A DNA stretch of 64,000 nucleotides. Source: a virus (lineage: Duplodnaviria > Caudoviricetes). The notes under the pieces are model-generated. The model was not told the DNA's origin. It saw nothing but the letters and a program-made list of their open reading frames with translations, and searched no databases. Shown here in pieces: positions 1,001-60,949 of the stretch. The stretch lies in IMG/VR virus record IMGVR_UViG_3300026522_000021; one strand, 5' to 3'. The translations under genes and the position numbers were made by a program. Numbering within the stretch: position 1 is the stretch's first letter; the number at the start of each line of letters is the position of its first letter.

Positions 1001-1007
1001 ATGTACC

Positions 1008-5235: not shown

Positions 5236-5242
5236 GCGTTAT

Positions 5243-5452: not shown

Positions 5453-5462
5453 TTTCTTCTCC

Positions 5463-8246: not shown

Positions 8247-11200
8247 TCATATGTTATTAATCCTTTTGTATGATGTAATCCATAATTCTGTAGTCCCTTC
8301 CACTGGAACAAATTCGCCATCTTCATTCCTTTTCATCTTTGGCTTATTGCGACTTCCAGATATCATGACAATATCGCCTTCTTTGAGTTTGTTCTTGTTA
8401 AATGTTTTTCTATCAATTTTGCAGTCAAGCGTATTACCATGCTTCAGAGAATACATTTTTAATTTCGGTGCATATTTTGTGTCAAGTGATACCACGCAAG
8501 CCATGCCACTGTACCTATCATCTACGATGTCAACATATCCAAGGTGGTCTATTTGCGCTTGAACTTTATCCTTTAACGTTCTTTTTGGACAATGTATTTC
8601 TCTCGCAACAATGGTTAACAGCTTTCTGCTATCTAATTTTGTGAACATTTTGGGTGATTCTTTTTCGGAACAGCTTCTAACCAAATCTATATTAAACCCT
8701 TCTCTTTCAAGAATATCCTTTTTAATTTGAAGCCTACCATTGAAGTAATCAAAGTATTCATATAGTTTCATTAGATAATTAGCATCGCCGAATTCATCAA
8801 AGAAATCAAGCTCAATCAAAATTCTTAACTGCCTTGAATTTAATGTGGTTTTATTGCTCAGATCGTAAAGCAAATCAATAAACGAATTATATTTGTTGTT
8901 TCTAAGTTCGTACATTTCATCGGCTACTTGCGCATTCATATACTTGATTGAAGCTATACCTTTGAATATTTCATTGGTTTCTTTTGAAATGCTATACTTT
9001 GAAGATGAATGTCTGAACTTGATTGGCTTTAATGCAATTTTGAAAAACTTTAATTCATTTATCAGCTTAAGTGTTCTTTCATTATCATCCGCATAGTAAT
9101 TAAGTACGGTCGTATAATACTCAAGTGGATAATGTGATTTCAAATATGCACCATATAAACTATCATATGCATAAGACAGTGAATGTGATGCATTGAATGA
9201 ATATCTCGCAGCCTGTTCAACTACAGTCCATGTTTCGATAAATCCATCCTCTGTACCTACGCGCTTTAGCCAACCTTGCAACAATTTGCCTTTTAAGTCT
9301 GCAAGCTCCTTTTCCTTGAATTTCTTTTTTGCTATCTTCTTAATGATATCATATGAACCAGTTTCTTCTATACCAAGCCAAATCAGATATTTCATGATTA
9401 GCTCCTGATAAATCATTCTGTGTTTGCCTTCGACAAGAATATTGTCAAGCTCTTCAACTCCTGTCGTGTACGGTTTTCTGTTAATGAAATCATCAAGCAA
9501 GCTTGCACATCCGGGGCGAATGATGGCTACAAATGCAGACATTTCAGATACGCTTTTAGGCTTATACTTTTTTACAAGTCCTGTGGCGAAATCACTATCA
9601 GCTTGATTAATCGTACATGTTAATCCATTTGCATAGATATCATACGTTTTATCGTCAAGAAGTTTATCAATTTCACGGATGGTAGGAATTGGTATACCAG
9701 CAAGCTCACATGTATCTTTTATGATTGCCCAAACTGTGACAGATAAATACCTTTATACCCTCGGTTTCCCGATATTTATTAGGGGAGTAGACTATACCAT
9801 GTACTTTATCAAGTACCGCCCATTATAGTCGTTGAAGGTCTTTCAAGCAATTTGTGTAAATGTATTATATTTTCTATCTATATAAACCGTGGCATCTTTA
9901 TATAGTAGATTAAATATTCTCTCAATATCTTGTTTGCATGACGTTACACAAGTGAATGTGATATCTGTTTCTTTAACTGTTTTCGTATGTAAATCAAAGT
10001 ATTTTTTAATGAAATCAACAACATTTTGCAATCCTGTGTATCCAAGATGATACTGTGGTTTCTTTAAATAGTCATATTTATAAATTTGTATACTTCCGTC
10101 ACCATCGAACATCCCTCTTACGAAATGGTGCAATAATGATTCTTGAATACTTTTTAATATTTTGTCTATGTCAAACACATAACTTTTTCTATTATGAAAG
10201 CCGTATCTTCTAAGTGTATCGCAAATAGTTTTTGACGTAATATTAAGATAATAGTTTCCATACTTATCTTGTTTTATTTCTTTGTTGGATTTGATTGCCT
10301 TTTTATATTTTTCAATAATATCTATATCTTTCATAGTAAGCATAATTGCATTTCTTGTAGAAATATGTCCGTCTGCAAGTAGCAATCCTAAAAAGTATGC
10401 CTTTTCCTCTGTGTCTATTTTATCGAAAAAATGTGTATCAACTTTATAAATGGCGTTATGCCTTTCTTTATTTAAATCAAATCCCCATTCTTTAAGATGA
10501 TTGGCTATCGTTGTATTCCAACAATTATATAATTTTGCGATTTCACCAGTTCTCATCCCTTGATTAACATACATATCAATTACTTTATCTTTTTCTTTTC
10601 CCCAAAATTCTTTGCCTCCATTGCTTTTATGCAAATAATTTTAACAACTCCTTTGCCACGGAGTATAATGCTTGAAATTTCCATGCTGATTGCCCATTGC
10701 ATAAACACATAGGATTTCTCCATATGCCATCCTTCAACTTGTTTCTACTTTCGTTCCATATAGGCATGAAGGCTTTAGGGTTTCCCAGCAATTTAGAGCG
10801 TTTTCACTTCCATATTACTATGAAAGGCGACTATTATATTTAATCGTTTTTTAAATATTTATATTTATCACAGTTATAACCATCTAAAAGACAGCATATT
10901 TTTTCCTTCGTGTGAACTAAACCAAGCTCTTTTCTAACTGGTTTGTTATATAACAACATACTGCATGGACTCTCGGATATGCTTTCAACAACACCAACAA
11001 ATCTTTGACTTTCCTCAATGAGCTTCTTCCATTTAGGATTGTCTCGATAACTATCTAAGTCTTTAGCAACATCATCGTATTCAGCAATATTCTTGCCAAT
11101 ACCCTTACAATATACTCTGAACGCAGATGAGTCTTGCAATGGTTTCCATGCTATCATCCATGCACAGTTTTCAGCGCCAAGCAAATCCTCTGTAGCTTTT

Positions 11201-12462
11201 ATAAATGGAGTTCTATCGGCAGTATTAAGATCAATATCTGGAAGGCTGCGCGTACCAAGTATTCTTTCGACAGACATAAACCTTGTCGGAAATAATGTTA
11301 TAGGCGCATTAACGCGATCTATATCGGTTAGTCCAAGCATCTTTGTAATGTAAAAACTTGGCGCTGATCCTCTACCAGTGTTTGTTAATTTACCACCATA
11401 TTTCTCTTGACCATCTTTAACCACGTTATAATCAATTAAGAAGTAATTCGCCATGTTGGTTTTTTCTACAATGTCAACCTCATAGCGGATTGCATCAAGA
11501 TATTTACCCCATTCACTTTTAGGTATATTTCTTCTTTCATCTAACCATCTGTTGTTAATAATTCTTTTTAAATCGTTAATTGGATTTTGTGATACAGATG
11601 GTAATTTGATATCATCATTAATGATTGTTATCTCTGAGCAATCGTCAAATACAAGTGTATTATAAAGCAATTCTTCTGCTTGCTTTTTGTCAAATATTCC
11701 CTGTCTGACGTAGCGATTAATAATAGTCTTATCATCAGGATAATCCAAAATCATCCCATCTTCTTCTGGATATTTTCTGTCTTTCCCCTTTAGAAAAATA
11801 TCCCTGTACTTTGCATCTTCTGGCAGGATGTAATGGCTATCATTAGCATGGATCATAGCAATTCCAGAAGCTTTACTGAATTCATACATTGCAGTATTTA
11901 CTTGTTTTTGAAAATCAGTATTATGCGCTTGCATTTCAAGAAAGAAATGTTTTCCAAAATGCCGATTTAATGCAAGAAGAAGTTCTCTGTCGTTCCATAT
12001 TCCTGCCACACATGCAGATGTTACTATGAAATTATTTGGATTAAGAGAAAACAATAATTCATCATCAATCCTTGGACGATAATAGAAACCAGTATCATGC
12101 GCTTCTGACATGATATCGTTTAATTGCATAACGCCATCATTGTTTCTCGCAATTATGATGATATGTCTGTTGCTTCTATCTCTTCCGTATGTTGGATTTC
12201 CATCCTTATCTTCGCCAGTCTTAATTTTGCCTATACGATCATGAACATAATACGCTTCTGTGCCATAAATCATTTTCAATCCATATCGTTTTGAACAATC
12301 GAGCCAAGTAAATATATCGCCCTGAACGCCATGATTTGTTGTAAAAACAGTTGTATGCCCCAACTCAACGGCTCTTTTGCAATAATCTTCTTCCTTAACT
12401 ACTACATCAAGACTCCACGGATTTCCCTTATGGTCATGTTTGTGATAGTTATTGTATCTCAT
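8247..12462 (-). CDS. dnaE: DNA polymerase III alpha (DnaE-type); exons 12462-10843 and 9749-8247, about 1040 aa spliced
   Basis: PHP domain (HKHDH, TTNHG, ANDSHY), GRGSA, PDIDL, YSFNASH; exons join in frame as KND|YLSVTVW. Confidence 0.92.
9750..10842 (-). mobile_element. Group I intron in dnaE
   Basis: P1 helix CGAU|UA...UAGUCG with a U.G pair at the 5' splice site; core elements AAATTGCTGGGAA, AATCAGCA, TTCAACGACTA, ATAGTCT; terminal G at 9750; removal restores the reading frame. Confidence 0.9.
9843..10634 (-). CDS. Intron-encoded LAGLIDADG homing endonuclease
   Basis: FLGLLLADG and FVRGMFDGDG motifs. Confidence 0.9.
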   Translation of the reverse strand: MHKSNGGKEFWGKEKDKVIDMYVNQGMRTGEIAKLYNCWNTTIANHLKEWGFDLNKERHNAIYKVDTHFFDKIDTEEKAYFLGLLLADGHISTRNAIMLTMKDIDIIEKYKKAIKSNKEIKQDKYGNYYLNITSKTICDTLRRYGFHNRKSYVFDIDKILKSIQESLLHHFVRGMFDGDGSIQIYKYDYLKKPQYHLGYTGLQNVVDFIKKYFDLHTKTVKETDITFTCVTSCKQDIERIFNLLYKDATVYIDRKYNTFTQIA

Positions 12463-14277: not shown

Positions 14278-15624
14278 TTAAAAATTGTTCTGTTTATTAT
14301 GTTGCTTTACTTCCGAAATTGTCATTTTATCGCCATCGAAATACAAGTCGATATAGTCATCTTCATCATCTTCACGCATCTGTTTACCAAGACGATTAAC
14401 ATATATCTTTGCATATGCGTTTCCGCATTCAGCGCCATCCTTCACCATCTGCTCTTGCGTTTTCTGTCCATACTTGATGCCAACAGAAAGATAACGATTA
14501 ATCTTAATGCTGTCCGCAACTTCACCTTGTCTATTCAACTGGCAAGCTGCAAGCACAGCGAGATTTAATTCTCCTGCTATCTTGTTTTTAAGAAAGTCAC
14601 ATTTCGCACCAAGAACATTGTAGTTAGTACCAGTTTCCGATTCGTTACTCTTCAGATAATCGAACACAAGAAATCTTATACCGATCTTGTTAATCCATAA
14701 CTTACAAGTAGTATAAAGTTCGTTGTCAGATATCTCTGGCTTATAGATGTGCTTGAACTTTTGTTTCTTAATCCACGCTATACTGTTCTTAATGCGTTGT
14801 TCTTCCTCTGCATTATATCTGCCGTTTTTAACCTTCTCGATATCAACATTCGATAAATGCGCAAGAAGTCTTTCAACATACAATCGCGTTTGCATTTCAG
14901 TATCTATAACCAAAACAGGAACACCATTTTTTAACTTATGGACAACCTCATTCATTAAAATGATTGATTTTCCTTCTTTATATTTTGCCTGTATTACAAC
15001 AAGCTCTCCTGTTTCATATGTAAAATACTTATTAAAACTTTTGAACTTAGATGGAATACCATACATTCCGTCTGATGTTCTTCTGCTTTCAATTTCGTGC
15101 CATATATCATCTATCTCATCGCCAAGCAATTTGACATCTGATCCACAGATAAATTCAGCAGTAACATCATCTAACTCGCCATATACATCCCCACTTAATT
15201 CATCAAGCGTAAGATTTTTATCAAAGCATTTACCAGATAAACCAACGAGCTTTTTATATAGATCTCTTTTGAATGCAAGTTCTGTGACATTCTTTGCAAG
15301 CATCAGATATTCTTCTAAAGTATGCCTTGCAAGTTCTTTGTATAGATCAACGAATTCCTGAACAGATGGAAGATTATACTTTTCGATAGTATGCTTAACG
15401 CCAGTATTGCTATTGAGTTTGTTTGACAAATTCAATGCGTCAATATTGTTGATGCCTTCTTTTATCAATTCTTGGATAGCCCAATAAATACATCCATTTT
15501 CCACGTTGAAAAAATGTCCTGCTTTTAAGAAAGTATCGGAATGAAGAATGAATTCTGGATGGAATATCAACGTGCCGATAACGCCACTTTCAGATTGGAT
15601 ATCTGATAATTCTGATATATCCAT
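14278..15624 (-). CDS. dnaB: Replicative DNA helicase (DnaB-like)
   Basis: Walker-like AKYKEGKS, DTEM, VFDYLK, CQLNR. Confidence 0.88.
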   Translation of the reverse strand: MDISELSDIQSESGVIGTLIFHPEFILHSDTFLKAGHFFNVENGCIYWAIQELIKEGINNIDALNLSNKLNSNTGVKHTIEKYNLPSVQEFVDLYKELARHTLEEYLMLAKNVTELAFKRDLYKKLVGLSGKCFDKNLTLDELSGDVYGELDDVTAEFICGSDVKLLGDEIDDIWHEIESRRTSDGMYGIPSKFKSFNKYFTYETGELVVIQAKYKEGKSIILMNEVVHKLKNGVPVLVIDTEMQTRLYVERLLAHLSNVDIEKVKNGRYNAEEEQRIKNSIAWIKKQKFKHIYKPEISDNELYTTCKLWINKIGIRFLVFDYLKSNESETGTNYNVLGAKCDFLKNKIAGELNLAVLAACQLNRQGEVADSIKINRYLSVGIKYGQKTQEQMVKDGAECGNAYAKIYVNRLGKQMREDDEDDYIDLYFDGDKMTISEVKQHNKQNNF

Positions 15625-16107: not shown

Positions 16108-16744
16108 CTTCCACCTCTAAAATATGTGTTGCCTCCATATCTGCCTGATGAAGTGCAAGTGCCAACGGATATTTTTCATAGGCTTGTCCAAGTTCAGTCC
16201 ACTGCGAACTATCGCAGTAAGCGCCCATATGGTAGGTGATCGCTGTAATTTCCTCCATAGACAGCTTCATGTACTGAAGAATGAACACAACGCTCTTGCT
16301 TCCATGACCGAGCGGATATTTATTATCTACTGTAAAGCAAGGAACTGTTTCCCAAATATAATCGCCTTTTGCATCATGTTTAACTTCACGAGAACTTGCC
16401 TTGCTTACTTTATCAGCATCATATGTTTTCTGGTTTTTAAAATCTGTCGTGTAATAATATGTTTTGCAAAGATCATGAAGAAGTGAAACAATCAGGATAG
16501 TCTCTCTGCTGACATCTTTAAGAACATCTTTCCAAATAGGTGCATCCACTTTTGCATTTAAGCATTCATAAACATGGAGACTATGCTTTAATAATCCGCC
16601 TTGTTCTGAAAGATGAAATCTTGTGCTTGCTGGCGCAGTATAAAAATCTGATTTACGGATAAAGTCGAGAAGGCTGTTAATACCTTCTCGCTTTACCTCA
16701 CTCAGCAGTTCTTCAAATTTTGCAATATTAGAATTTTCTGCCAT
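16091..16744 (-). CDS. HD-domain hydrolase
   Basis: APASTRFH, HSLHV, LLHDLCK, HMG, HQAD. Confidence 0.85.
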   Translation of the reverse strand: MAENSNIAKFEELLSEVKREGINSLLDFIRKSDFYTAPASTRFHLSEQGGLLKHSLHVYECLNAKVDAPIWKDVLKDVSRETILIVSLLHDLCKTYYYTTDFKNQKTYDADKVSKASSREVKHDAKGDYIWETVPCFTVDNKYPLGHGSKSVVFILQYMKLSMEEITAITYHMGAYCDSSQWTELGQAYEKYPLALALHQADMEATHILEVEDGKKS

Positions 16745-16780
16745 GTGATTATCCTTTCAATAAAAAACTAATTTTATTAG

Positions 16781-17200
16781 TTAATTAAATGGTAATTCAC
16801 CATCATCAATGTCATCAGGGATATTCATAAAACCATCCGAGCCGTTATTTGTGTTAACGGAATTGACATTATTCCCTTTGTTATTCTGATTGCCATCTTG
16901 AATTTCAAGCCCGAAAATAGTGTAGTGCGGAGTGTAAGATACTTTTCCATCAGGAGCGGTATAAACGTTTGTTACTTCGCAAGAAGAAATCTTAATTGAA
17001 ATTCCTTTCTTCTCATCAATCTGTACACCCTGAAATGCTGTGTGCGCCTGTCCGACAAGCCTTACATAACCATCCTGAAAATCTGTGGTGTATGCGCCTG
17101 TGTTTTTGTCTTTACGACTGATTGAGATTCTGGCTGTTGAATAGTTACCTTTGTTTTCAACCGACCAAACTCTCGCATATGAATCCTGTCTAAATCCCAT
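16781..17200 (-). CDS. ssb: Single-stranded DNA-binding protein
   Basis: OB-fold-sized ORF with acidic tail GFMNIPDDIDDGELPFN. Confidence 0.8.
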   Translation of the reverse strand: MGFRQDSYARVWSVENKGNYSTARISISRKDKNTGAYTTDFQDGYVRLVGQAHTAFQGVQIDEKKGISIKISSCEVTNVYTAPDGKVSYTPHYTIFGLEIQDGNQNNKGNNVNSVNTNNGSDGFMNIPDDIDDGELPFN

Positions 17201-17234
17201 GCTTTCTTTTCCTTTCTTTAATATCTTGTATTAT

Positions 17235-17864
17235 TTATTTGCGAACTGCCATAAGCTGTTTCTTTAATTCTGCTAAAACGTCAGCATCCTCGATAAGTCT
17301 TGGATCGCCATTTGCAGACTCATCCGCAGCCTTGCAGATTTCACCAACTTTTTCTTTTGCTTTGTCAGATAAATTACATTTCTTTTTAATAAGTTCCATG
17401 CATTCATTCTGTAGTTTAACTACGTTTGCAAGTTCATCTGGAAGTTCTTCACCAGAATAAATATATAGCGAAATTCCTGTAGCTATTGCCAATGCCTTAA
17501 CTAAACAACGCTTTATACTCTTATTTGCATCAACCGATGTAATTTGGTCGCATGGAATGGCTCTATTTTTGAAATCCATAATGGCAAGCATTTCTTGTGT
17601 TTCGCAAACCTCGCCATCATCTGCTTCAATTCTTACAGAAACTTCTACCCATCCAGTTCGCCCATCATCATGCCACGGTCTTGTATTGCCTTTATCATCA
17701 ACAATTTGCGGAATGATTTCAAAAGTTGTTTTTGGATATACATCTTTAACAAGCTGAATAGCTGCACTCCACGGAAGATATTTTAATCCATTCTTTTCCT
17801 TAACCTTGTCTGCCGTGTTGATAGCACTCAACGTAGCAAATATACCTTTCTTTTTCTCTGCCAT
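17235..17864 (-). CDS. Sak3/DUF1071-like single-strand annealing protein
   Basis: YLPWSAA, IMDFKN, NKSIKRCLVKA, GISLYIYSGEELP. Confidence 0.8.
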   Translation of the reverse strand: MAEKKKGIFATLSAINTADKVKEKNGLKYLPWSAAIQLVKDVYPKTTFEIIPQIVDDKGNTRPWHDDGRTGWVEVSVRIEADDGEVCETQEMLAIMDFKNRAIPCDQITSVDANKSIKRCLVKALAIATGISLYIYSGEELPDELANVVKLQNECMELIKKKCNLSDKAKEKVGEICKAADESANGDPRLIEDADVLAELKKQLMAVRK

Positions 17865-17893
17865 ATTTCACCTATTATCTTGAATTATCTATG

Positions 17894-18472
17894 TTAAACA
17901 GTATACCAGTCTTTAGCAAGCATATCTGTCTGGCTTGCTAACCACGGAACTACCGTACCATCAACTGTTTTCATCGCAATATAAGCGCCATAAGGAACTA
18001 AACCTTTTTCATTTACACAATTCTTTGCGGCTGCTTTTGTCTGAGGCGCATATTCACCTTTGGGAACGTAATAAATAAACATTCCATTTCCGTTCCATCC
18101 TCTGCGAGCAACACGTTTTCCCCCCTGAATAACCTTCAGCGCAATATCAAATCCATATTCCAGAACCTTATCAGAGAAGAATTCAAATCCGATCACATAA
18201 ATATCTTTGCTGTTTTTATGTGTCATATTGTCATCATAAGTGCTATTGATGTATTCAACTTTATTATGACCCTGTGAATTGAAAATGATCTCTGTACTGT
18301 CATCAGGCATATGGATATAAAGATTTAATGCAAGCTCTGGTGAATCCTTATACTTTTCATACTGCGACATGAAATCTTCTTTTGTCACTCTTGGGAATTC
18401 AGGCATCTTCATATTTACATCTTCATAAATCAAATCTTTATTTGCTTTCTCCATTATGTAATCCTTTCTCAC
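17894..18472 (-). CDS. Tad2 (DUF2829)-domain anti-defence protein with an extra N-terminal domain
   Basis: C-terminal FDIALK...GKRVARRGWNG...PWLASQTDMLAKDW. Confidence 0.8.
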   Translation of the reverse strand: MRKDYIMEKANKDLIYEDVNMKMPEFPRVTKEDFMSQYEKYKDSPELALNLYIHMPDDSTEIIFNSQGHNKVEYINSTYDDNMTHKNSKDIYVIGFEFFSDKVLEYGFDIALKVIQGGKRVARRGWNGNGMFIYYVPKGEYAPQTKAAAKNCVNEKGLVPYGAYIAMKTVDGTVVPWLASQTDMLAKDWYTV

Positions 18473-18834
18473 AAAACTCTTTGATTTCTTTTAATTTCTC
18501 TTCTGTTGTTTTGTCATTGTTACACATATCCAAAACCACACTAAGAGCAGACTTCATACCAGTTACAATTGCATCATTTCTTACTCTGGTCATTTCCGTC
18601 TTGATCTGTTTTGTCAACTTCTCTTCCTGTTCCTTGTTCATCCGTCTTTCCTTTCGGTTTTCTATCTTTGCCAGTTTCGCAACGAAGAATACTAACATCA
18701 GTTTTAATTGGCTGATATCCTACTAATGGACAATCTTCACATTCATGTGTTCTGCAAAGCTCATTCGCATATTGAAACCAATGTTGTATTCGTTCCATTT
18801 CTGGACTGTTACCACCAAAATTTATTGTCATAAC

Positions 18835-19776
18835 TTAATGCGCAAATTCGTCTGCTTCATGTAAAGCAACAACTTCATTAAATACTTTATCGCCAAGCTG
18901 TATCTTTAATTTCTTTTCGACACTCTTGCTCATCTTCCATTCGCGATAAGGACACATATGGAAGTAAATCAATGTAGCTACATGAATGATATCATCAACA
19001 TGATATCCAAGATTATACAGATAAAAGATCGAGTCATAAGCGCCAACACAATGATGTTGATAATAATGGCAGTTGCCATCTCTTTCGCCTTTGCTGTTAA
19101 CCGCTGTCATCGTGAACACTTTTCCTTCATCATGAATAAGCGCCGCAAGATGAAGAAGTTCATTCTTCGGATAATGTTCAAGAATATATGTAGCTGCTTT
19201 TCTGCAATGTTCGCCAAGAGTTAATGAGTGATGATAGTTGCCCTGATCCATATAATCAATACCTGTGGCATGATTATAAAGTGTTGATAATGTATAGTCT
19301 GCAAAATCTTCTTTCTGACAACTAAACACGATATCTATGTTATCCCATCCTTCACTTTTATGCGGAGTCTGAAAATTCATATACATCCTCTTGATTACAT
19401 TGTCAGGAACTTTTCTTTCTCTCTTCTGATTATTAAGAAGGCAAACATAATATGGCGCTACAACTAATATGCAAGATTTATGGCAAGGAATATTTTTAAG
19501 TTCCTGAAGAAATCCCAAGCGTCTTTTACGGTTAAGATTTGTTGCATCATATATAACGTCTTTACCACTCTTTAAATCTTCCTTGATGCGCCTATGTAAT
19601 TCATCAAAAAGTTTTGTATTACTCTCTTTGGAATTTTCGTTTACATCTCCAAACATCTCCTCGCGTAAATCATCAGATGAATGGATTGTATAATACTTAC
19701 TTAAACTCTTTGCATATGTGGATTTGCCAGAACCAGCGATACCCACAAGCATAATCAATGTTGGTGTATTATCCAA
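18835..19776 (-). CDS. Polynucleotide kinase-like P-loop protein fused to an HD domain
   Basis: GIAGSGKS, SSDDLR, DATN; IHDEGK. Confidence 0.8.
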   Translation of the reverse strand: MDNTPTLIMLVGIAGSGKSTYAKSLSKYYTIHSSDDLREEMFGDVNENSKESNTKLFDELHRRIKEDLKSGKDVIYDATNLNRKRRLGFLQELKNIPCHKSCILVVAPYYVCLLNNQKRERKVPDNVIKRMYMNFQTPHKSEGWDNIDIVFSCQKEDFADYTLSTLYNHATGIDYMDQGNYHHSLTLGEHCRKAATYILEHYPKNELLHLAALIHDEGKVFTMTAVNSKGERDGNCHYYQHHCVGAYDSIFYLYNLGYHVDDIIHVATLIYFHMCPYREWKMSKSVEKKLKIQLGDKVFNEVVALHEADEFAH

Positions 19777-20554
19777 TGTCTATATCCTTTCTAATCTCAC
19801 TTTTTATTAGCTTAATAAAATCTTTCCTATTTATCTCGCCAGACCATTCGCCATGTAAAATCTGCTCAGCTTTATGTCTTGTTTTGACTGCATCTTTTAA
19901 TTCATCGAATGTACCGAGATGATATTTCTTTCCGTTAATAGATATTGACGATTTATATTTGCCATTCTTTAATACGGAAACGCCTGTGTATCCAGATGTA
20001 TTGTTTGACTTTCTTTTGATGTTTATATTGTTTTGCGTCTTTGTTGCTATCCTTAGATTTGACTTCTTATTATTTGATTTATCCCAATTTATATGATCGA
20101 CAATCTCATCATCTTTTGCTCTCATTATTATTCTGTGTAACCATACTATCTTATTTGAGCCATTCCTACCGTTAGCGATAATGTATCCTTTTCTATCTTT
20201 TCGCCAACAATAATCTTTTACCCTATCAAAATCTTCTGCATCAATTACAAACTTTTCGCCTTTATTTGTTATTCCGTATATATTGTCACCATCGAACATC
20301 CACTTTATTTCGATTGTATTTTTCTGTTTGTGCAGAATTTCATTCCTATAGCATCCACAAGAAATGGTCGGGTTTGATTTGTTCATCAATGAACTACTCC
20401 TCACAACGACCTCATTCCCACAATCACATAGACAATTCCAGAATGCAGAATAGTTACCAGTCTTAGCAAAATATTCTTTTTGTTTTCCATAATTTCTTGA
20501 GATTACATTTAATCTGCCAAACCTCATTCCTGTTAAATCTTTTGCAAACGACAT
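19769..20554 (-). CDS. HNH-AP2 homing endonuclease
   Basis: DLTGMRFGRL, CLCDCG, VDHINWDKSNN, NTSGYTGV. Confidence 0.85.
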   Translation of the reverse strand: MSFAKDLTGMRFGRLNVISRNYGKQKEYFAKTGNYSAFWNCLCDCGNEVVVRSSSLMNKSNPTISCGCYRNEILHKQKNTIEIKWMFDGDNIYGITNKGEKFVIDAEDFDRVKDYCWRKDRKGYIIANGRNGSNKIVWLHRIIMRAKDDEIVDHINWDKSNNKKSNLRIATKTQNNINIKRKSNNTSGYTGVSVLKNGKYKSSISINGKKYHLGTFDELKDAVKTRHKAEQILHGEWSGEINRKDFIKLIKSEIRKDIDIG

Positions 20555-21913
20555 TTACATCTCCGAAAGTAAGTCATCATCAATGTCACTTATATCCGTA
20601 TTATCTTTGATAATGTTAGAAAGAACTTTAAAATAGAAATTCTTATGTTTATATGCTGTAAACTTTTCCCTGTTTGCAATTCTCACAACCACACCTTCCC
20701 GAATATGAGTCTTGCCAATCGGGTCTGCACCATCGTAATATTTTTCTACTCTTTGCATTAAATCATCCCAAGTAGTAAAGATGAACTTTTCAAACAGTGG
20801 AACGCATTTAGCACCCATCTTTTCGCAAAGAATTTGCATTTCTTCAAATGGTATCTCTACAACAAATCCATCCTCGTTTATCATTGTCATACGATAAACA
20901 TAAATATCATTTTCACCAACATCACACCCATAAGAAAAGACTGTTGTATCACCGTATGTCTTTGTAAATTCTTTATCCTTCACGAGTTTGTTAGAACACT
21001 TCCCCATGATGGTTTGATCTCCTTCTGTGTAGCCAACAATCTCGTAATAGACACATACACCTTTCGGCAATTTATCTTTAAAGAAATCATGCCACTTCTG
21101 TCTGAATTTATTGCTTCCATAGTAACCGCCATCATAAGTTCTGAGAGTTGTTCTTCTTGTTCCGCTTACAACGGCATATCTTGTAGTTTCCTTGTCTCCT
21201 ATATGAAATAACTTCTTAATGATGCGTGGTCTTTTCTTTTTAGTGACTTCTATAACATTTGCTGTTCTTGCTGAAGTTCCATGCATTTTAAGTGTGATAT
21301 AGCAAATATCGCCTTCCTTAAATGCGTTCTGATTATATGCAAGCTGTTCTGTGTCTGAATGAAGTATAAAGGTCGGATAGCTGATAACTTCTTTAACTTC
21401 TTTCAAATTCAATTTTGACTTTACAGAATCAATTGAATTTCTTCTCTGTCGTTTAGGAATATATTTTCTACAAATCTCATGACCGTCAATGACAGAAATC
21501 ATATCCCCATCTTTCAATGTAGATACGTCAACATACTTAGAAAGTGTTTCAATCGGAAGTACAAGACCATCAGACTTTTCACCACGAAGTTTTAGTGCCG
21601 TGATATTTCTTTTTTCGGCATCCATGTAACCGCCGACATTGATACAATCAACGCCATCTTTCTGAACAACCTGTTTCCCTTCAATCTGTGCATCGTCAAG
21701 TTCTGAAACAGGGACATACTTCTTAACAAGATTATTGTCTGTTGCGAATTCCTCACTCAGTTGCCCATCAACAGGAAAATAAATAACGCGCTGACCTTCT
21801 GAATAGCTTAAATCAACGATTACATTATTCCCAAATACAGAAACGCAATTTAATCGGTCTGCATTTGAGTGTTTATGTAATTCTTTTAATGTAGTTACAT
21901 ATGCGGAATACAT
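20555..21913 (-). CDS. RNA ligase (DRB0094/Rnl2-like) with N-terminal tRNA-binding OB domain
   Basis: HSNADRL, TLKMHGTS (motif I), YYEIVG, REGVV, YKHK. Confidence 0.8.
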   Translation of the reverse strand: MYSAYVTTLKELHKHSNADRLNCVSVFGNNVIVDLSYSEGQRVIYFPVDGQLSEEFATDNNLVKKYVPVSELDDAQIEGKQVVQKDGVDCINVGGYMDAEKRNITALKLRGEKSDGLVLPIETLSKYVDVSTLKDGDMISVIDGHEICRKYIPKRQRRNSIDSVKSKLNLKEVKEVISYPTFILHSDTEQLAYNQNAFKEGDICYITLKMHGTSARTANVIEVTKKKRPRIIKKLFHIGDKETTRYAVVSGTRRTTLRTYDGGYYGSNKFRQKWHDFFKDKLPKGVCVYYEIVGYTEGDQTIMGKCSNKLVKDKEFTKTYGDTTVFSYGCDVGENDIYVYRMTMINEDGFVVEIPFEEMQILCEKMGAKCVPLFEKFIFTTWDDLMQRVEKYYDGADPIGKTHIREGVVVRIANREKFTAYKHKNFYFKVLSNIIKDNTDISDIDDDLLSEM

Positions 21914-40063: not shown

Positions 40064-40819
40064 TTATGCTATACGAATTATTTGTTCATACAAGCAAATA
40101 AATTTCCCCATAACTTGTTCATTTCTATGCAGATGCGCGAAGAACCATTTCGTAAATTTTAATCCATCCCATAACAATTCATTGAAATACCATGTCAATT
40201 TATCTCTGTCTGTAAATCCCATGACAGACTGTACTTCTTGAGGCGCACAATGGCTAATCACAAAATCAACTTCATTGTTTACAGCCTTTAAAGATTGTCG
40301 CCCACGTTCCATCTCTTCATCATTCGGCATTTCTTGATCCCACCATGATACGCCCCTGACACGAAACATCTTTCCGTACTTCTGCCATCTCCTATATGTA
40401 TCTCTAAAGTCATCCATGTCTACGAAATCATTAGGGTCTAAAATTCCATCTTGAATATCGTGCGAGCTTGCGCCTCCAAAGGCAAAGAATTTTTTATCGC
40501 ATATATCAAACACGTAACCGCGCATTAAATGATAAATATTATCCCTGATTTTGTGCGCTTTACCACCGTGGAAATCAACAATAGGATACGTGTAAAGCAA
40601 ATCGAAATTCTCATGATTTCCATCAACGAACAGCGTTGTAAACGGTTTATTATTCAGCCAATCAAGCCAATACTTTTCATCTTTTGAGTTAGACCATACC
40701 AGACCAAAGTCACCTAAGATAATAACGAAATCATCACGCGTCATTTCTTTCTGTTCTGGAAAACTATCTACGCTAAATCGGCGTGGATCTCCATGAATGT
40801 CACCTGTGCAATAAATCAT
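40064..40819 (-). CDS. Calcineurin-like metallophosphoesterase
   Basis: GDIHG, LGDFG, GNHE, SHCAP, AHLH. Confidence 0.88.
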   Translation of the reverse strand: MIYCTGDIHGDPRRFSVDSFPEQKEMTRDDFVIILGDFGLVWSNSKDEKYWLDWLNNKPFTTLFVDGNHENFDLLYTYPIVDFHGGKAHKIRDNIYHLMRGYVFDICDKKFFAFGGASSHDIQDGILDPNDFVDMDDFRDTYRRWQKYGKMFRVRGVSWWDQEMPNDEEMERGRQSLKAVNNEVDFVISHCAPQEVQSVMGFTDRDKLTWYFNELLWDGLKFTKWFFAHLHRNEQVMGKFICLYEQIIRIA

Positions 40820-41445
40820 TCGTCATACCTCTCTAACTTTTGTTCTTTGGTTTTCAAAATGAAATCCCTGTATTCTTCATAGTCCTTGAACTTGATGTAT
40901 TCACCATTGATTACATCGAAACAATTTTCATTTCTGGCAAATTCATATGCGTTTGCGCTGATAACAAAGTAAATGTCTTTATTCTTTTCTGTTTCTATAA
41001 CCAATGGAATAAGACTTTCTTTTATATCAATCACATTGTCAATACTTAATCCGCTGTCAATAGCATCAAACAAGAACCATAGTTCTTTAGCATCTGGATT
41101 TTCCTGCGACATGCGCCCCATTTTTCTGGCTATATCTTCAAGAACGTTTACAATGTTTTCGCCTTCGCTACTCATCATTGTTCTTGCTACGATATCAAAA
41201 TTTCCCCAAAATGCAGCCTTACTTCTTAACTCTCTCTCGCCGTCATGCATATTGCTATGAAACAGCACAGGAATATCTTTGTTTTTCAAACTTTGATTTA
41301 TTTGATTGAGAAGTGTAGTCTTTCCTGCGCCATTACATCCAACAAGAACAGTTAGCCCTGTATTTATTTTGATTTGCTTCTTCTTAAAGATTGCAAACCC
41401 ATCATCACCATACCAATCATTTGATAATCTGAATTGTCTGCTCAT
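40816..41445 (-). CDS. Small ABC/AAA-type ATPase
   Basis: GCNGAGKT, SSEGE signature, FLFDAIDSGLS. Confidence 0.75.
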   Translation of the reverse strand: MSRQFRLSNDWYGDDGFAIFKKKQIKINTGLTVLVGCNGAGKTTLLNQINQSLKNKDIPVLFHSNMHDGERELRSKAAFWGNFDIVARTMMSSEGENIVNVLEDIARKMGRMSQENPDAKELWFLFDAIDSGLSIDNVIDIKESLIPLVIETEKNKDIYFVISANAYEFARNENCFDVINGEYIKFKDYEEYRDFILKTKEQKLERYDE

Positions 41446-51623: not shown

Positions 51624-52442
51624 CTATTCACCGATATAAACCAACTTGTCTATGTATTCTCTATCTTCTCCTGCAAAAATCGGTATATTATCATCGGCAA
51701 CCCAATCAGAGCCACAGTATTTTACACAACTTCCTCGTTTCATAACGGTAGGATAATCATCCCAATTTACACCTTTTTCTTTGAGTAACATTTCCTTTAT
51801 TTCATTGCAACTCTTATTCTGAAGTTGTTTCTGCGTGAAGCATGATTGCCCAAGCATTTGTATACTATTTCTTATTGCATCAAGCTGTCTCCAATAGAAA
51901 TAATTTGTCACTTCTTCTTTTGTAAGATTAAAACATCTGGAGTCGAACATTGCGCCCCTTATTTTGGCTTTATAATAGACTTCATGTTGCTTCAATATTT
52001 TTCTTTCGTTATCTGATAAACGTCTATTTGTTCCACCTTCATCCCAATCTTCAATATTTTCTCTTCCAAACATATCAATGTTTGCCTCAAAATTTCTATT
52101 GAATATAAGAGTTGCTATAGAAGCTGTTACGCTACATACCTTTTGCACTTCATAGCCAAAGAACGCTTCAGTGTTTAATGATTTATAATCAATCAGCAAC
52201 AAAGAAATCTCATCGGATTGATGATAACCAAGAACGCATCCCTGAATGTTCACGCATAAATACTTCATCGTATCTTGCATAGTTTTTATCAATAAAGAAT
52301 CAAACGGCTTTTCAAAACATCTTGTAAAAGTATGAAATGCTTTTCCGTCAATGCGTATAATAACTGGCATCCTTCTTATTAAAGAGTTTTTTGGAACGCT
52401 CTCATACGTTTTCATCCTCTTTGCCAAATCGCTATTATCCAT
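51624..52442 (-). CDS. tRNA(His) guanylyltransferase Thg1-like protein
   Basis: RIDGKAFHTFT, QSDEIS, FDSR, WRQLDA.RNS. Confidence 0.92.
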   Translation of the reverse strand: MDNSDLAKRMKTYESVPKNSLIRRMPVIIRIDGKAFHTFTRCFEKPFDSLLIKTMQDTMKYLCVNIQGCVLGYHQSDEISLLLIDYKSLNTEAFFGYEVQKVCSVTASIATLIFNRNFEANIDMFGRENIEDWDEGGTNRRLSDNERKILKQHEVYYKAKIRGAMFDSRCFNLTKEEVTNYFYWRQLDAIRNSIQMLGQSCFTQKQLQNKSCNEIKEMLLKEKGVNWDDYPTVMKRGSCVKYCGSDWVADDNIPIFAGEDREYIDKLVYIGE

Positions 52443-53514
52443 TATTTATCCTTTCTTTATCACATAAAACAATCTCACTTCTAATCGGGCATCCTCCCAT
52501 ACACTCTCTTCTTCTTTCGCAATTCGGACACGAATTTCTAAAATGATTTCTGAAATCTTCAAACACTTCACTGTCCCATGCGTTCTGAATAGTATCGTTT
52601 GAAATGTCATACGCCCATTTCATGTCCTGATTGTCAAAGCTGCACGGCAGAGCTTTCATGTCTGATGTAATATACATTGACCATCTACCGCCCTCGCAAG
52701 TGTCAAAACTATCAGGATTGATTTTTGTTGTGAAATTGATTAGTCCGGGAACAGTACAGCTATCAAACCCGATTTTAAAATCATGATCGTAATTTTCTAC
52801 AATATTGAAAAACTTAGAAACTCTGCTATCGTTCACCTGTAAAACATTATCGGATTGACCAAGCCCAACAGGTTTATGAAGAAGGAATATAATCGCATTA
52901 ACGCCCTTTGGAAAATCGTTATCCTCAAGTCTTTGAATTGCTTCGTCAATGGAATTTTTTCCGAGAACATAATGGATGTTTGTCTTTACTCCTTCATCAA
53001 TAAGCATCTTAATTGCTCTAAGTGTATGTGGCTGTCTGTACCAACTGATTGCTACTGCGCCGCAATACTTCCTGCAAAGAGAAACAATCTCGTCATTAAA
53101 TCCTAATCCCGAAGATGTGAAATTAGGAACGATATTATTTTCGCGGCAGTATTGAAGGATCTCTTTGAAGTTTTCATGTTGATCTACATCGCCACGACCG
53201 CCAAGCGCAAGCTGATAACATTTTCCTTTACACTCATCAACAATTCTTTTAAAGTTTTCCAATGTCATGTTTGGATATTTCGTTTCAAGTCCGTTCTGAT
53301 AACACTGAACACCTGACTTGATACATAATCCGCTGCGTCCATGCTTGCAAAATCCCATTACGCCCACATCTATCAGTTCAGGGAATGAACTCATAAACGG
53401 ATCAACGCCTGTATCTTTCCCATGTTCATCAAGAATACCTGACCGCATATAGAACCCTGTATCTGGATTAAACATTGAAATGTATCTGTTCTTCTTGTCG
53501 TATTTGCGAATCAT
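52435..53514 (-). CDS. Radical SAM protein with SPASM domain and atypical Cys motif
   Basis: CX7CX6C-YQ, LALGGRGD; SPASM-like CEGG...PCSF...CPNC...CMGGCP. Confidence 0.85.
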   Translation of the reverse strand: MIRKYDKKNRYISMFNPDTGFYMRSGILDEHGKDTGVDPFMSSFPELIDVGVMGFCKHGRSGLCIKSGVQCYQNGLETKYPNMTLENFKRIVDECKGKCYQLALGGRGDVDQHENFKEILQYCRENNIVPNFTSSGLGFNDEIVSLCRKYCGAVAISWYRQPHTLRAIKMLIDEGVKTNIHYVLGKNSIDEAIQRLEDNDFPKGVNAIIFLLHKPVGLGQSDNVLQVNDSRVSKFFNIVENYDHDFKIGFDSCTVPGLINFTTKINPDSFDTCEGGRWSMYITSDMKALPCSFDNQDMKWAYDISNDTIQNAWDSEVFEDFRNHFRNSCPNCERRRECMGGCPIRSEIVLCDKERINNG

Positions 53515-53529: not shown

Positions 53530-54282
53530 TTAAAGGCTTGTCTGTGACGTAATGAAACAAATCTTTTCTCCTGTTTCAGTATTCACACCCATACCTTCAA
53601 CCCTAACTTCATAATTCCATGTATCAAACTTTACTTTGTCGCGCTGTTCATCAAGACAAACTATTTTAAATCTGACCATCCCTTTGAAATTCTTGATGAT
53701 AGTTCTGCACCATTCGCCATATTTTTCTAAGAAGTCTGGCTTACGTTTTAAAATGTTTTCAAGTGTATCAACACATACCATTCCTGCGTCCGCGCAGAAA
53801 CTTCCGATTTCTTCTTTTGTTTCTGAATCGAATGTCGTACATCCCCAATCGCCGTAAATCGTATCGCGACATAACGGGAGGGAGTCTAAATCAAATCCTC
53901 TGCACCATTCATTAGTTGTATAGCAAGGGTCTGTAATAACTATGTCGCCTTCCATATCAACCCATTCGCTGTCAAGCAATCTCTCCAGTGACCACAACAT
54001 TGATTTACAACTCTGAAGAACACCGAAACCTAATTCAGTATTTACATACTGTTCTTCTTTTAAGTAATCATCATTCTGATTTACGCATTTTATTCCATGA
54101 ATAAGCCATTTGAAATCATCCGCTGACGCGTCCTGACAAGTCCTAACTTTTTCGATTAAATATTTCTTATCAACATTTTGTAAGTTATCATCTTGATTGA
54201 TTAGTTTACATGTCAATTGAACAGCAACGCCGATATCGTGAAGCGCTTCTTCTTTCTTTTGTTCATACCATTGGTTGTCCAT
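53530..54282 (-). CDS. Hypothetical phage protein
   Basis: ITDPCY, TIYGDW, FCADAG motifs. Confidence 0.65.
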   Translation of the reverse strand: MDNQWYEQKKEEALHDIGVAVQLTCKLINQDDNLQNVDKKYLIEKVRTCQDASADDFKWLIHGIKCVNQNDDYLKEEQYVNTELGFGVLQSCKSMLWSLERLLDSEWVDMEGDIVITDPCYTTNEWCRGFDLDSLPLCRDTIYGDWGCTTFDSETKEEIGSFCADAGMVCVDTLENILKRKPDFLEKYGEWCRTIIKNFKGMVRFKIVCLDEQRDKVKFDTWNYEVRVEGMGVNTETGEKICFITSQTSL

Positions 54283-54349
54283 CCTATATACTCCATGTCT
54301 TGAATGATTGGGCGGTCTTACGCCGCCCGATGTGTTTATGAATTACCGT

Positions 54350-55108
54350 TTAGAACGCTTCGCCGTTATAGATTCTGATGGAGAAGCACGGAACAACCCC
54401 ATAGACGTAGCTCGCGTAGCTGCTGCTCAAGTAGCCGTGGATGCCGACAAGCATGAAGTAGGTCGCGACGCTCAAGTGGGGGGAGCAAGTCCAATACCAA
54501 TATGTTTCTCCATCTTTATTGTTCTTACATCTTTCCGCTTCTGTCTGCAAACCATTGAATAGAATGTCATCTTTGCCAGAATGATATTCTGTTTCTTTAA
54601 GGTTAGCCAAAGAAAGAAGATTTACTTTTCTCCTGAATGTCACAACCTTGCCATCTGCGCTTGCGATATGCTCGATGATCTTCATACTATCAACAAGCTC
54701 TTTCGGCATCTTGTCTGTGAAATCATCAAGATATTTTTCCATATCATCAATGCTGGACTCGCCAACAATATCTCTTGACACAAAATACACATCATCGTAT
54801 TCATCCGTCTTGTTGATATGTTCAACCACAAAAGTTACAACCTTGTCACCTACAGGAACGTCAAGCGTATCCTTCAGTCTGTATGTGTCTTTGACAACAT
54901 CTGATATTTTCCGATCAGAATAACACGTATATCCATGTCTATATGTACAATCTTCAGCGCCGATTTCCTCAAGCTCTAAATCCTTATCATTCACAGCTTC
55001 AAGAACAACGCCGTTAACCAGTTTCACATAATTCTTTCCTGTGCGTTTGTCGCGAAATCTCTTTACACCCTCCATGATTTGTTCTCCTTGTATTGAATTA
55101 TCTTGCAT
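54350..55108 (-). CDS. DUF6273-like (C-type lectin fold) protein, putative DGR target
   Basis: KVNLLS, WYWTCSP...GVVPCF C-terminal pattern. Confidence 0.7.
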   Translation of the reverse strand: MQDNSIQGEQIMEGVKRFRDKRTGKNYVKLVNGVVLEAVNDKDLELEEIGAEDCTYRHGYTCYSDRKISDVVKDTYRLKDTLDVPVGDKVVTFVVEHINKTDEYDDVYFVSRDIVGESSIDDMEKYLDDFTDKMPKELVDSMKIIEHIASADGKVVTFRRKVNLLSLANLKETEYHSGKDDILFNGLQTEAERCKNNKDGETYWYWTCSPHLSVATYFMLVGIHGYLSSSYASYVYGVVPCFSIRIYNGEAF

Positions 55109-55115: not shown

Positions 55116-55144
55116 ATTATAGCATTGTTCTTTATGTATGTCAA
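55116..55144 (-). promoter_or_regulatory. Consensus SigA promoter with extended -10
   Basis: TTGACA-17 nt-TATAAT with TG extension. Confidence 0.85.
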
Positions 55145-58470: not shown

Positions 58471-58974
58471 TTAGTAAGCATCAAGAATTGGAAACTGTGA
58501 CTGCATAGCACGGCAGATGCGCATAAGCATATCAACGTCTTTTATCTCGCCCATATAGTATTTTAAATTTTCCTTCTGCACAGTTGTTAACTGCTCTATA
58601 AGTAGTGTACTCGGCGCAGTCAGTCCGTATTTCTTATGATCCCATATCTCCACATGGCAAGGCAGATTTCTTTTGTTCATTTTAGTTGTCAACGGAATAG
58701 CATTTATCACCGTGCTATGCTGATTGTTCTTGTCATTCGAGATAATAAATACTGGTCTATGACCGCCCTGAATACTGCCATCCTGTGACGGAAGATTAGC
58801 CATCCAGATTTCTCCGCATTTAACATCACGACTTTCAGCCCCGATGAATTCAACACTATTATTTTCGTATTTAATGAAGAACGTCATAGGCTGCGCAGAT
58901 TTTCCATCTCGTCTTGCCTGTGTTCTTATTCTTGTTGATGCATTCATCATAAGCCTCCAGTCTCCAGATACCAT
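58471..58974 (-). CDS. PemK/MazF-family endoribonuclease
   Basis: GEIWMANL..QDGSIQGGHRPVFIISND..N, PLTT, EQL. Confidence 0.85.
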   Translation of the reverse strand: MVSGDWRLMMNASTRIRTQARRDGKSAQPMTFFIKYENNSVEFIGAESRDVKCGEIWMANLPSQDGSIQGGHRPVFIISNDKNNQHSTVINAIPLTTKMNKRNLPCHVEIWDHKKYGLTAPSTLLIEQLTTVQKENLKYYMGEIKDVDMLMRICRAMQSQFPILDAY

Positions 58975-59706
58975 TAAAAATCATCTAATGGTTTAGTTAT
59001 GTTGTCATTCGATTTCCTTTTTACATAGAAATCATATCCGGGTTTAATCAACACCAGTTTTCCACATCTCGGAAGATCATAACCAAAGTAAGGCTTTTTA
59101 TCTTTATTCTTATTCAGTTTGATCCTCATGAACCGTCCAACCGCATTGATAATTTCCACCGTGCGATCATCTGATTTGTTTGTGTATTTGATTGTACCAT
59201 CATTCTTTAAATCGCCAGTGCCAATGAATAACCCTGTTGTCTTGTGGTTTATTCCAATAAAGTATCTATTCCAATTCATGTTACCACTCCTGAAATATGT
59301 GGTGTACTGCATCGAACAATACACCACATTTTCCATTATTCTTCTGTAGCTTCATTATAATGTTTTTCGTTTTTATAAATGTTCTCCTCGTATTCAAATG
59401 CTTCTTTTGCATCCTCAAAACATTTACCGTCACTTGCCATCCATGTAGCGTTTACAAGAGTAAGACGATCTTTAATTCTTGTACGATAGCTTTTTGAAAT
59501 GAAGCCGCTGTTGCCATCAAAATACTGCTCTGGTATCAGTTCCTTCGCCCTAACCTTCATCCATCCGTTGCCATTATTATTTCCTGCCGCCGAAGGAGAA
59601 TAGATCAAAGCCATGATATGATTTTCCTGAAACACGCTAAACACATCAACCATACAGTTATGTTTCTTATAATACATTCTCTCCATCGTTATCGCCCCCA
59701 AACGTG

Positions 59707-60858
59707 TTACATGTCTACTTCTTCAGGCTCGTTCATGAAGTCAGAAGAAACATCCTCATGTTTTTCAATATCGGATTTTTCTGCTTCTTCAACGCCATCA
59801 TCTTCATGTTCATCGGATGCCTCGATATCCACATCATCGAAGAACCGATCCCATACCTTTTCGATCTCATCATGTCTGCGCTTGATATTCGCGTTCTTTG
59901 CAGAACCACCCTTGCAAGCATCGGAGTAAGCATCGGACACGATCACGCCATTTCCGAAAAGTTCTACCATGAAATCGCCCATCAGCTTATCAGAAATCTC
60001 ATCATCAATAGCCTGTTTGATCCACGGAACAAGCGAGATCATATGCGTTTCAGAAACCATTTTCTTTCTAACAGCCTTCGCAACCTTCGCATTGTCGTAC
60101 TCCTCAAGCACATTATAGATTGCGTAAATCTTATCCAGAACAGAAACGACCTCATCGCGCTCGGCATCGCTCATCTTCGTTTCCTGCATCACTTCGTTGA
60201 AAGTTCTGCTTTCAAAAGATACATCATCAATGTCCTCGTTCAGCATCATCCATACCTTCATGATGATCGGGAGCTGCTTTCTGGTTGCAAGCGCCTTTTC
60301 GGTCATGGTGTTCTGGAAAAGCTCATGCTTTCCAATATCAGAAACGGTGATGATGTCAACACAGTTAGCAATGTTGCGCTCTTTAGTGGAAAGGGGCTTT
60401 CCATTGTTCAGCTTCGCGAACAGCATCCGAACCTGTTCAGGAGTGATATCCTCGTAATAGTAGATCGTCAGGTGATAATCCTTGATTGCATCCTGAATCT
60501 CTTCGGGAAGGTCTTTAAAGTATTTCCCTTCAAGCCATTCCGTCTGCTCATTGCCCTCTGCATCAGTATATGTAATCTCAGGAACGCCAATCAGGTAATA
60601 CTCGTTCTCGATGAAGCCACGAATAGCATTGATGCGCTGCTTTCCATCAAGGAAATCATATGTTCTTCCGTCAACCTTCTTTGCGTAAAATGGCGGTACA
60701 GGATATCCTTCAATCAGGGAATGAATCAGGTTACTCTTCCTTGTCTGTTCCCATACATAGGATCTCTGGATGATATTGTCGAAACTGAATGTTCCGTTTC
60801 CTGCCATTTTCGCGATCTGCTTACAACTCCATGTAATGTTTGCTTTGTTAAGTGCCAT
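59707..60858 (-). CDS. DUF262 (ParB/Srx-like) protein
   Basis: QRSYVW, LIHSL..GYPVP, DGKQR, FAKLNNG; probable start MALNK. Confidence 0.82.
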   Translation of the reverse strand: MALNKANITWSCKQIAKMAGNGTFSFDNIIQRSYVWEQTRKSNLIHSLIEGYPVPPFYAKKVDGRTYDFLDGKQRINAIRGFIENEYYLIGVPEITYTDAEGNEQTEWLEGKYFKDLPEEIQDAIKDYHLTIYYYEDITPEQVRMLFAKLNNGKPLSTKERNIANCVDIITVSDIGKHELFQNTMTEKALATRKQLPIIMKVWMMLNEDIDDVSFESRTFNEVMQETKMSDAERDEVVSVLDKIYAIYNVLEEYDNAKVAKAVRKKMVSETHMISLVPWIKQAIDDEISDKLMGDFMVELFGNGVIVSDAYSDACKGGSAKNANIKRRHDEIEKVWDRFFDDVDIEASDEHEDDGVEEAEKSDIEKHEDVSSDFMNEPEEVDM

Positions 60859-60920
60859 TTCTTTATCCTCCTTTGTTTGATTTGCTTTGTGTTCTTTGTT
60901 TACTACCTCTCTATGTGAAC

Positions 60921-60949
60921 ATGTTACCACATAAAGAGGTAGATGTCAA
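60921..60949 (-). promoter_or_regulatory. SigA-type promoter
   Basis: TTGACA-17 nt-TAACAT with TG extension. Confidence 0.65.

Follow-up and report, generated by a model that had tools for sequence, protein, structure and literature searches.

The diversity-generating retroelement (DGR) of Bordetella phage BPP-1 comprises Mtd, Avd, a template repeat (TR) and the reverse transcriptase (RT) bRT, and has a single adjacent target, the tail-fibre tip. A hairpin/cruciform target-recognition element is situated downstream of the variable region (VR) in BPP-1. Two-target DGRs are found in gut Firmicute phages, e.g. the nd4/nd12 'tentaclin' plus tgt2 systems (Baykov et al. 2023, PMC10743442) and the large plus small DUF6273 targets of the Faecalibacterium phages Lelie and CP11 (PMC11792537). 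In FP_Toutatis the second target is non-adjacent and lies 17.5 kb from the TR (bioRxiv 10.1101/2024.10.15.618418). The locus reported here is a 241-aa DUF6273 open reading frame in IMG/VR virus record IMGVR_UViG_3300026522_000021 (Duplodnaviria; Caudoviricetes), of which a stretch of 64,000 nt, termed the window, was analyzed. The best explanation is that the C-terminal segment of this open reading frame is, very probably, a genuine second, non-adjacent DGR variable region that is served from outside the window, and that the carrier is a large phage (~150 kb) of gut or rumen Gram-positive bacteria.

The system resembles the gut Firmicute two-target DGRs in that one TR would serve two genes, the VRs are at the C-terminal end of a domain of the DUF6273/C-type-lectin (C-lec) kind, and one large multidomain target is combined with one small single-domain target. 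Unlike in these systems, ~61 kb appear to separate the small target from the TR, the two being on opposite strands of a ~150-kb phage, and the small target has its own consensus early-type promoter among replication, RNA-repair and defence-like genes. The large target, seen in relatives, is ~2640 aa with a C-terminal VR, whereas the gut Firmicute systems show an N-terminal VR with Ig domains. By definition a tentaclin carries Ig-like/Fn3 beta-sandwich domains after an N-terminal DUF6273; the 241-aa protein, with a single C-terminal C-lec domain and no Ig-like domain, resembles the 'tgt2' partner, not tentaclin. Wu et al. 2018 (PMC5758913) describe many phage-associated DGRs in which an adjacent target is joined by a non-adjacent one, the latter nearly always within 50 kb of the RT. 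The separation of ~58–62 kb found here is above this norm of <50 kb, a distance that the large genome makes possible. As with the Treponema denticola TvpA paralogues (PMC5758913), the VR is off the cassette and would be recognised in trans via common 3′ signals. DUF6273 as a C-lec DGR target domain, large-plus-small pairs and non-adjacent phage targets are thus already published; what is unusual here is the 61-kb distance, the opposite strand, the consensus early promoter and the non-structural region. The largest metagenome survey looked beside the RT only and could not detect remote targets (Roux et al. 2021, PMC8144416). In the present case the VR signature alone (NNC codons, loss of adenines, conservation of the 3′ end and a hairpin) flagged a target with the template tens of kb off.

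Variable region and matching template

The VR differs in composition from the rest of the gene. GC content across positions 54370–54490 is 0.53–0.60 and falls to ~0.30–0.40 in the surroundings. C-ending codons make up 22 of 33 codons in the VR versus 32 of the gene's 197 other codons (Fisher p 9e-9), and the adenine share is 15% versus 34%. No template was found in the window: an adenine-tolerant scan of both strands gives the self-match only, the next best hit being 48/60 with 29 true matches, and a repeat finder returns the VR itself only. Nor is there an RT among the 37 of 40 open reading frames of at least 200 aa that were scanned with Pfam. The three outside that scan are a 209-aa open reading frame (40816–41445), a 204-aa overlapping open reading frame on the + strand (14747–15361) and a 404-aa + strand frame antisense to 59707–60930.

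A matching template is present in relatives. Assemblies reached through RT homologues carry intact cassettes with the order DUF6273 giant protein (2638–2643 aa), a 264/265-aa open reading frame, TR, RT (427–429 aa) and a tail-fibre-like protein (PHROG 1348); the cassette in relatives is next to tail-fibre and lysis genes. In one of these (L028), a full-length 429-aa RT adjoins a TR (9626–9736) that, over 105 nt, shares 86 identities with the VR of the window, with 18 mismatches at template adenines and a single mismatch at a non-A position. Within the 98-nt core the two sequences agree at 65 of 66 non-A positions, and the VR departs from the template at 17 of 32 A positions. The L028 TR, when used to scan the window, hits this VR only (65/66 non-A positions, against a background maximum of 32/66). 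The TRs of L027 and L029–L032 were considered as a source of the template but fit poorly, and the L028 lineage was used.

The sole non-A mismatch is an ACC codon in the L028 TR where the VR has ATC, and this codon reads AAC in the TR of a further relative, the contig C189 described below. Relatives vary fully at the corresponding column (A, G, I, N, S, Y). From these alignments, the TR of the window phage itself almost certainly has AAC at this codon.

The 3′ end of the VR, GGGGTTGTTCCGTGCTTCTCCATC, is similar to an initiation of mutagenic homing (IMH) sequence. All 24 nt are identical to the end of the cassette-adjacent VR (VR1) in L028, while the template copy (IMH*) of L028 is the same for the first 14 nt, differs beyond them and reads TGA where the VRs have TGC. 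Thus the homing end shows the usual IMH/IMH* asymmetry. BPP-1 likewise has a GC-rich 3′ homing end with unlike VR and TR copies, adenine-specific TR-to-VR differences and a C-type-lectin-fold target with a C-terminal VR.

Variation across samples is concentrated in the same segment. A protein search with the target gives 29 homologues, many 80–90% identical, which are nearly invariant except for the stretch SPxLSxTTxFMxVxxxGxLxxxxASxVxGVVPCFSI. In a set of 21 proteins from different samples, mainly one 90% cluster and neighboring clusters, mean pairwise identity is 96.4% over residues 1–199, 51.3% over residues 200–225 and 98.8% over residues 226–241. The high-entropy columns (200, 203, 206, 209, 211–213, 215, 217–220, 223 and 225) coincide with the AAY codons of the template, and the residues found at them (N, S, T, Y, G, A, C, D, H, I, L, F, V, P) fit NNC codons. 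At the nt level, when five VRs are pooled (window positions 54389–54486 together with L001, L036, L037 and L039), 28 of 32 template-A columns vary versus 4 of 66 non-A columns (p 4e-16). The 160 pooled template-A sites are made up of 92 that are still A, 32 G, 31 T and 5 C. The substitution spectrum at template adenines is therefore skewed, with C the rarest.

As single-stranded DNA, the GC hairpin downstream of the stop codon forms a stem of 7 pairs in which one A is bulged, capped by a GTAA (GNRA-type) loop. The window has one copy of it. In relatives the 19-mer, or a GCAA loop variant, is 3′ of both VR1 and the VR of the remote target (VR2), and none is found after the TR. The hairpin is kept where the flanks have diverged (L003, and L033 where the protein is 52% identical), and one copy displays a compensatory stem change, GTGCGG/CCGCAC. 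The more distant homologues in L005 and L034 show other GC hairpins at the same place. By analogy with BPP-1, which also has a downstream GC hairpin with a GNRA-type tetraloop, the hairpin is presumed to be a DGR target-recognition element with a putative role in retrohoming. It is ~50 nt beyond the homing end here versus a few nt in BPP-1.

The hairpin was also considered as an intrinsic terminator; this was rejected as the main reading, since no T-run is present on the coding strand and the hairpin accompanies VRs and also an orphan homing end. A terminator scan picked it up on the + strand only. This bears on a wider alternative, that ordinary positive selection or recombination produced the variation with the hairpin a mere terminator and no retroelement involved. 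GC hairpins are common after stop codons, and the folding energy of this one alone is unremarkable (z −1.75), but a terminator would not account for a hairpin that accompanies VRs 61 kb apart, nor selection for variation concentrated at template adenines and a TR in relatives with AAC at each variable codon. This alternative is considered extremely improbable.

The orphan homing end is in an intergenic spacer of L019 (G001:C162; − strand, ~1450–1640), with no VR or open reading frame attached. It consists of 21 nt that match the VR 3′ end exactly and, ~50 nt on, a variant of the hairpin in which the stem change is compensatory; 26 nt beyond the variant is an exact copy of the hairpin.

A sequence-only reading of the window, made without database searches, had described the abrupt switch to GC-rich, C-ending codons, the hairpin downstream of the VR and the lack of a template or RT in the window, and had proposed a remote DGR target served by a TR and RT located elsewhere. 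The composition counts agree with the switch, and the template, repeat and Pfam scans with the absence, within the 37 open reading frames covered. The hairpin is present and recurs behind every related VR examined. The remote target is borne out by the TR and RT of relatives and by the A-specific variation among them, on which that reading had been staked.

The retroelement cassette and its expected position

The relation between the cassette and the remote target can be seen in a 101,241-bp contig of a GTDB genome (G001:C189, here C189), which carries an orthologue of the target (P0017) with 74% identity. A Pfam RVT_1 search of that genome places an RT on C189 at 29.7–30.4 kb, and a DNA search with the VR of the orthologue locates the TR and a second VR (Table 1). 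The TR, the RT and the first target are 61.6 kb from the orthologous small target. The TR and VR1 differ at 15 positions, every one of them A, and agree at all 74 non-A positions; the remote VR2 displays 11 differences from the TR at A and 1 at G. C189 is binned in a Bacteroidales metagenome-assembled genome, but the sigma-70-type promoters, judged from sequence, speak for a host among Gram-positive bacteria.

In C189 the TR and RT are separated by an inserted IS21 element (IstA/IstB; L026:7042–9505), and the RT is N-terminally shortened, 309 aa versus 427–429 aa in homologues. Both C189 VRs keep the DGR signature although the RT is shortened.

The RT gives its best solved-structure match to 8ub7 (328-aa chain, deposited as 'Reverse transcriptase') with an E-value of 2e-16; group II intron RTs score 3.6e-8. 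The RT motif LGSQVSQ aligns with IGSLTSQ of 8ub7. From its length and the motif isoleucine at chain residue 181 we take 8ub7 to be the Bordetella phage DGR RT; no paper was found for the code. The [I/L]GxxxSQ motif is shared with the RT of BPP-1, and the RT found here is ~100 aa longer than that of BPP-1. The 264/265-aa open reading frame between the giant target and the TR is conserved and all-helical, and the 264-aa accessory protein gives no Pfam match. Its model (pLDDT 79) aligns over 114 residues with the pentameric four-helix bundle 2gsc (TM 0.88, Foldseek probability 1.00, E 0.08), presumably a member of the Avd-related family. Only one half of the accessory protein bears this resemblance to an Avd-type bundle, and the resemblance is weak.

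The position of the cassette in the window phage can be predicted from L029, where positions 16295–21147 are collinear with window positions 217–6430 on the same strand and the RT ends ~5 kb left of this block. The cassette is therefore expected just past the left edge of the window, ~5–10 kb left of position 1, on the + strand and opposite to the target. With the target at 54.4 kb this gives a separation of ~61 kb, in agreement with the 61.6 kb on C189. The genome presumably still carries an active cassette.

In the proposed mechanism, TR RNA would be reverse-transcribed with misincorporation opposite adenines, and the cDNA would replace the VR of any gene that has both the GC hairpin and a 3′ homing end of matching sequence. 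One cassette would thereby serve the adjacent giant target and the remote small target through identical homing signals. In the small target, 14–15 AAY-templated codons, plus ~5 codons with one templated A, would be rewritten on the ligand-binding face.

Several points weigh against a remote target served by an active cassette. The presence of the cassette in the window phage is deduced from synteny with relatives, the copy on C189 is probably inactive, and the resemblance of the accessory protein to an Avd-like four-helix bundle is weak (Foldseek E 0.08). In addition, one homologue, P0151, has an identical VR in 14 contigs (L037–L042) from several samples or sequencing runs. This suggests a circulating lineage without VR rewriting, or closely related samples; diversification is thus not continuous in every lineage. 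Activity is read here from between-sample diversity.

These points lead to another explanation, that the VR is a fossil, written by a DGR in the past and now fixed, with the cassette lost or dead. Published Toutatisvirus phages do retain targets after DGR loss (bioRxiv 10.1101/2024.10.15.618418), and a fossil is in keeping with the window scans that found no cassette, with the shortened, IS21-interrupted arrangement on C189 and with the unchanged P0151 VR. But the homing end (24/24 nt) and the hairpin (19/19 nt) are intact in the window, many different VRs are found on 96%-identical backbones, and close relatives have intact 427–429-aa RTs with a matching TR. A fossil target is therefore considered unlikely.

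The target protein and where it may act

The listed open reading frame reaches position 55108 (252 aa), and the start was set at MEGV (55075), which is common to all homologues. Pfam gives a DUF6273 (PF19789) match at residues 124–245 of the 252-aa open reading frame (E-value = 2.9e-10; 40.7 bits against a gathering threshold of 23.5). The protein consists of a short N-terminal beta region with three short strands (~1–58), followed by the DUF6273/C-type-lectin-fold domain (~59–237). The AlphaFold2 model, with an input of 58 sequences, has a mean pLDDT of 92.7. In structure comparison, the best match to residues 59–237 is the N-domain of 9qa6, of DUF6273 type (Z 15.1, rmsd 2.5, 161 aligned), followed by Legionella Lcl (Z 8.9) and the Treponema DGR target TvpA, 2y3c (Z 8.8), and below these by dozens of C-type lectin domains. 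The target is thus predicted to have a C-type-lectin fold, with the VR on its C-terminal ligand-binding face.

The protein shows no hydrophobic or membrane segment and no signal-like N-terminus (maximum Kyte-Doolittle 1.07). A PHROG search of the target and its neighbors gives no match. A tblastn search of 50,697 deposited phage genomes with the target protein and a DNA search of deposited phage genomes return nothing, and no relative was found in IMG/VR viral contigs searched with the protein. Pfam on longer homologues shows no informative fused domain.

We give an even chance to a role inside the infected cell, where the protein would be a variable binder produced along with the early genes, as opposed to a receptor-binding protein of the virion. 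The sequence-only reading had suggested a hypervariable intracellular binder rather than a tail fiber. Hypervariability holds; the case for an intracellular site is circumstantial and consists of an early-type promoter, non-structural neighbors and the absence of any signal peptide or transmembrane segment. The settings of divergent homologues also favor a non-virion role, as judged from gene content. In none of four such homologues (L033, L035, L005 and L034; Table 1) is there a structural module. Much of this common context may be inherited synteny, which is a point on the other side. So is the literature, in which small single-domain DUF6273 DGR targets are read as Mtd-like receptor-binding proteins (PMC10743442; bioRxiv 10.1101/2024.10.15.618418).

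The small protein could, by the latter account, be a second Mtd-like virion receptor-binding or adhesion protein encoded off the tail module, so that two host-recognition proteins would be diversified in parallel. The large plus small DUF6273 pairs of gut phages have been read as receptor-binding (PMC10743442, PMC11792537, bioRxiv 10.1101/2024.10.15.618418), the first target is a giant protein adjoining tail-fiber-like genes, and the C-type-lectin fold is common to Mtd-type binders. A virion role fits less well with a gene that has its own consensus sigma-70 promoter with an early-promoter motif and is on the opposite strand in a replication/accessory region. Nor is there a PHROG or structural-protein match, or a virion-attachment domain beyond the 58 N-terminal residues, and the divergent homologues are among early or counter-defence-type genes. 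The virion account is plausible, though we place it short of an even chance.

Cellular DGRs of multicellular bacteria and cyanobacteria diversify intracellular sensor or conflict proteins (PMC7517822, PMC10907252). If the intracellular reading is right, the phage target would be comparable, as a C-type-lectin module in the cytoplasm whose diversification serves recognition within the cell. Cellular DGR targets are multidomain (STAND NTPases, kinases, proteases), whereas the phage protein is single-domain with no effector domain. A more specific proposal, which we hold to be rather doubtful, is that the DGR retargets the virion and also keeps a cytoplasmic early C-type-lectin binder hypervariable for phage-host conflict. 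Such a binder might, for instance, capture fast-evolving host defence proteins, and it might also cooperate with the radical SAM/SPASM system that is repeatedly found downstream. If true, it would make this protein the first 'intracellular antibody-like' DGR target encoded by a phage. In either case the gene is a widely sampled phage DGR target outside the structural module, with >100 natural VR variants on a nearly constant backbone, and with this variant set it becomes directly testable what phage DGR targets other than tail proteins bind.

Promoter, neighboring genes and genomic setting

The target promoter (Table 1) is the only 12/12 sigma-70 match found by a promoter scan within 49.5–56.5 kb. 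An operator-like motif, checked by eye, is just upstream of the −35 and is found again in the leader. The sequence-only reading also held that the target heads a radical SAM operon; the perfect promoter and the presence of the enzyme gene downstream in several relatives speak for this. The 250-aa Cys-rich gene directly downstream of the target is found at the same position in L001 (94%) and L003 (78%) by tblastn. Radical SAM/SPASM homologues are found behind the target in L001 (93%), L003 (71%) and L033 (84%). In L035 (1148–2973) a radical SAM/SPASM homologue likewise follows the target homologue, and here the enzyme is better conserved than the DGR target that accompanies it (66% versus 36%).

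Table 1. Coordinates of the target locus in the window, of the repeats on contig C189 and of divergent homologues
Feature	Sequence	Position	Strand	Remarks
DUF6273 target gene	Window	54350–55075	−	241 aa; open reading frame list, Pfam, homologue alignment
Variable region (VR)	Window	54376–54486	−	111 nt homologous to TR of relatives (BLAST, L028:9626–9736)
Mutable core of VR	Window	54389–54486	−	98 nt; encodes residues ~197–229
VR 3′ end, IMH-like homing end	Window	54377–54400	−	TR/VR comparison
GC hairpin, GGGCGG-7 nt-CCGCCC	Window	54310–54328	−	21 nt past stop codon
Target promoter	Window	55116–55144	−	TTGACA, 17 nt, TATAAT; extended −10 TG
Ribosome-binding site AAGGAG	Window	55084–55089	−	Strong
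250-aa Cys-rich protein gene	Window	53530–54282	−	Next in unit; no Pfam or PHROG match
Radical SAM/SPASM enzyme gene	Window	52435–53514	−	Pfam SPASM
VR1	C189	24,990–25,170		78% identity, reaching into hairpin; C-terminus of 1695-aa DUF6273 protein
TR	C189	26,115–26,222		89% identity to VR2; AAC at every variable codon
VR2 (orthologue's own)	C189	87,736–87,976		
Target homologue	L033			52% identity; same early region as window
Target homologue	L034			45% identity; small early open reading frames, near PP2C phosphatase and kinase
Target homologue	L005	8752–13990 (gene set)		43% identity; between GmrSD_N and NAD-salvage block (NAPRTase, NAD synthase, NUDIX)
Target homologue	L035			36% identity; radical SAM/SPASM homologue (66%) 15 nt later

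The window as a whole is a replication, nucleotide-metabolism and RNA-repair region of a large phage. Its genes include NrdD with an intein, a split PolIII alpha, DnaB, DnaG and Sak, as well as RNA ligase, a CCA-adding enzyme, a Thg1-like protein, the radical SAM/SPASM enzyme and integrase-like genes. Upstream of the target are integrase-like, PemK and GmrSD_N genes, and Thg1 is among the neighbors. At 58471–60930, genes for a PemK/MazF-type toxin and GmrSD_N (DUF262) are found between two integrase-like genes, and by gene content this looks like a small defence-type island in the early region. The gene set around the L005 homologue is reminiscent of phage counter-defence against NAD depletion.

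NrdD (window positions 2362–5235) carries an intein that contains a LAGLIDADG domain. PolIII alpha (8247–12462) is split into two open reading frames around a free-standing LAGLIDADG open reading frame (9843–10634).

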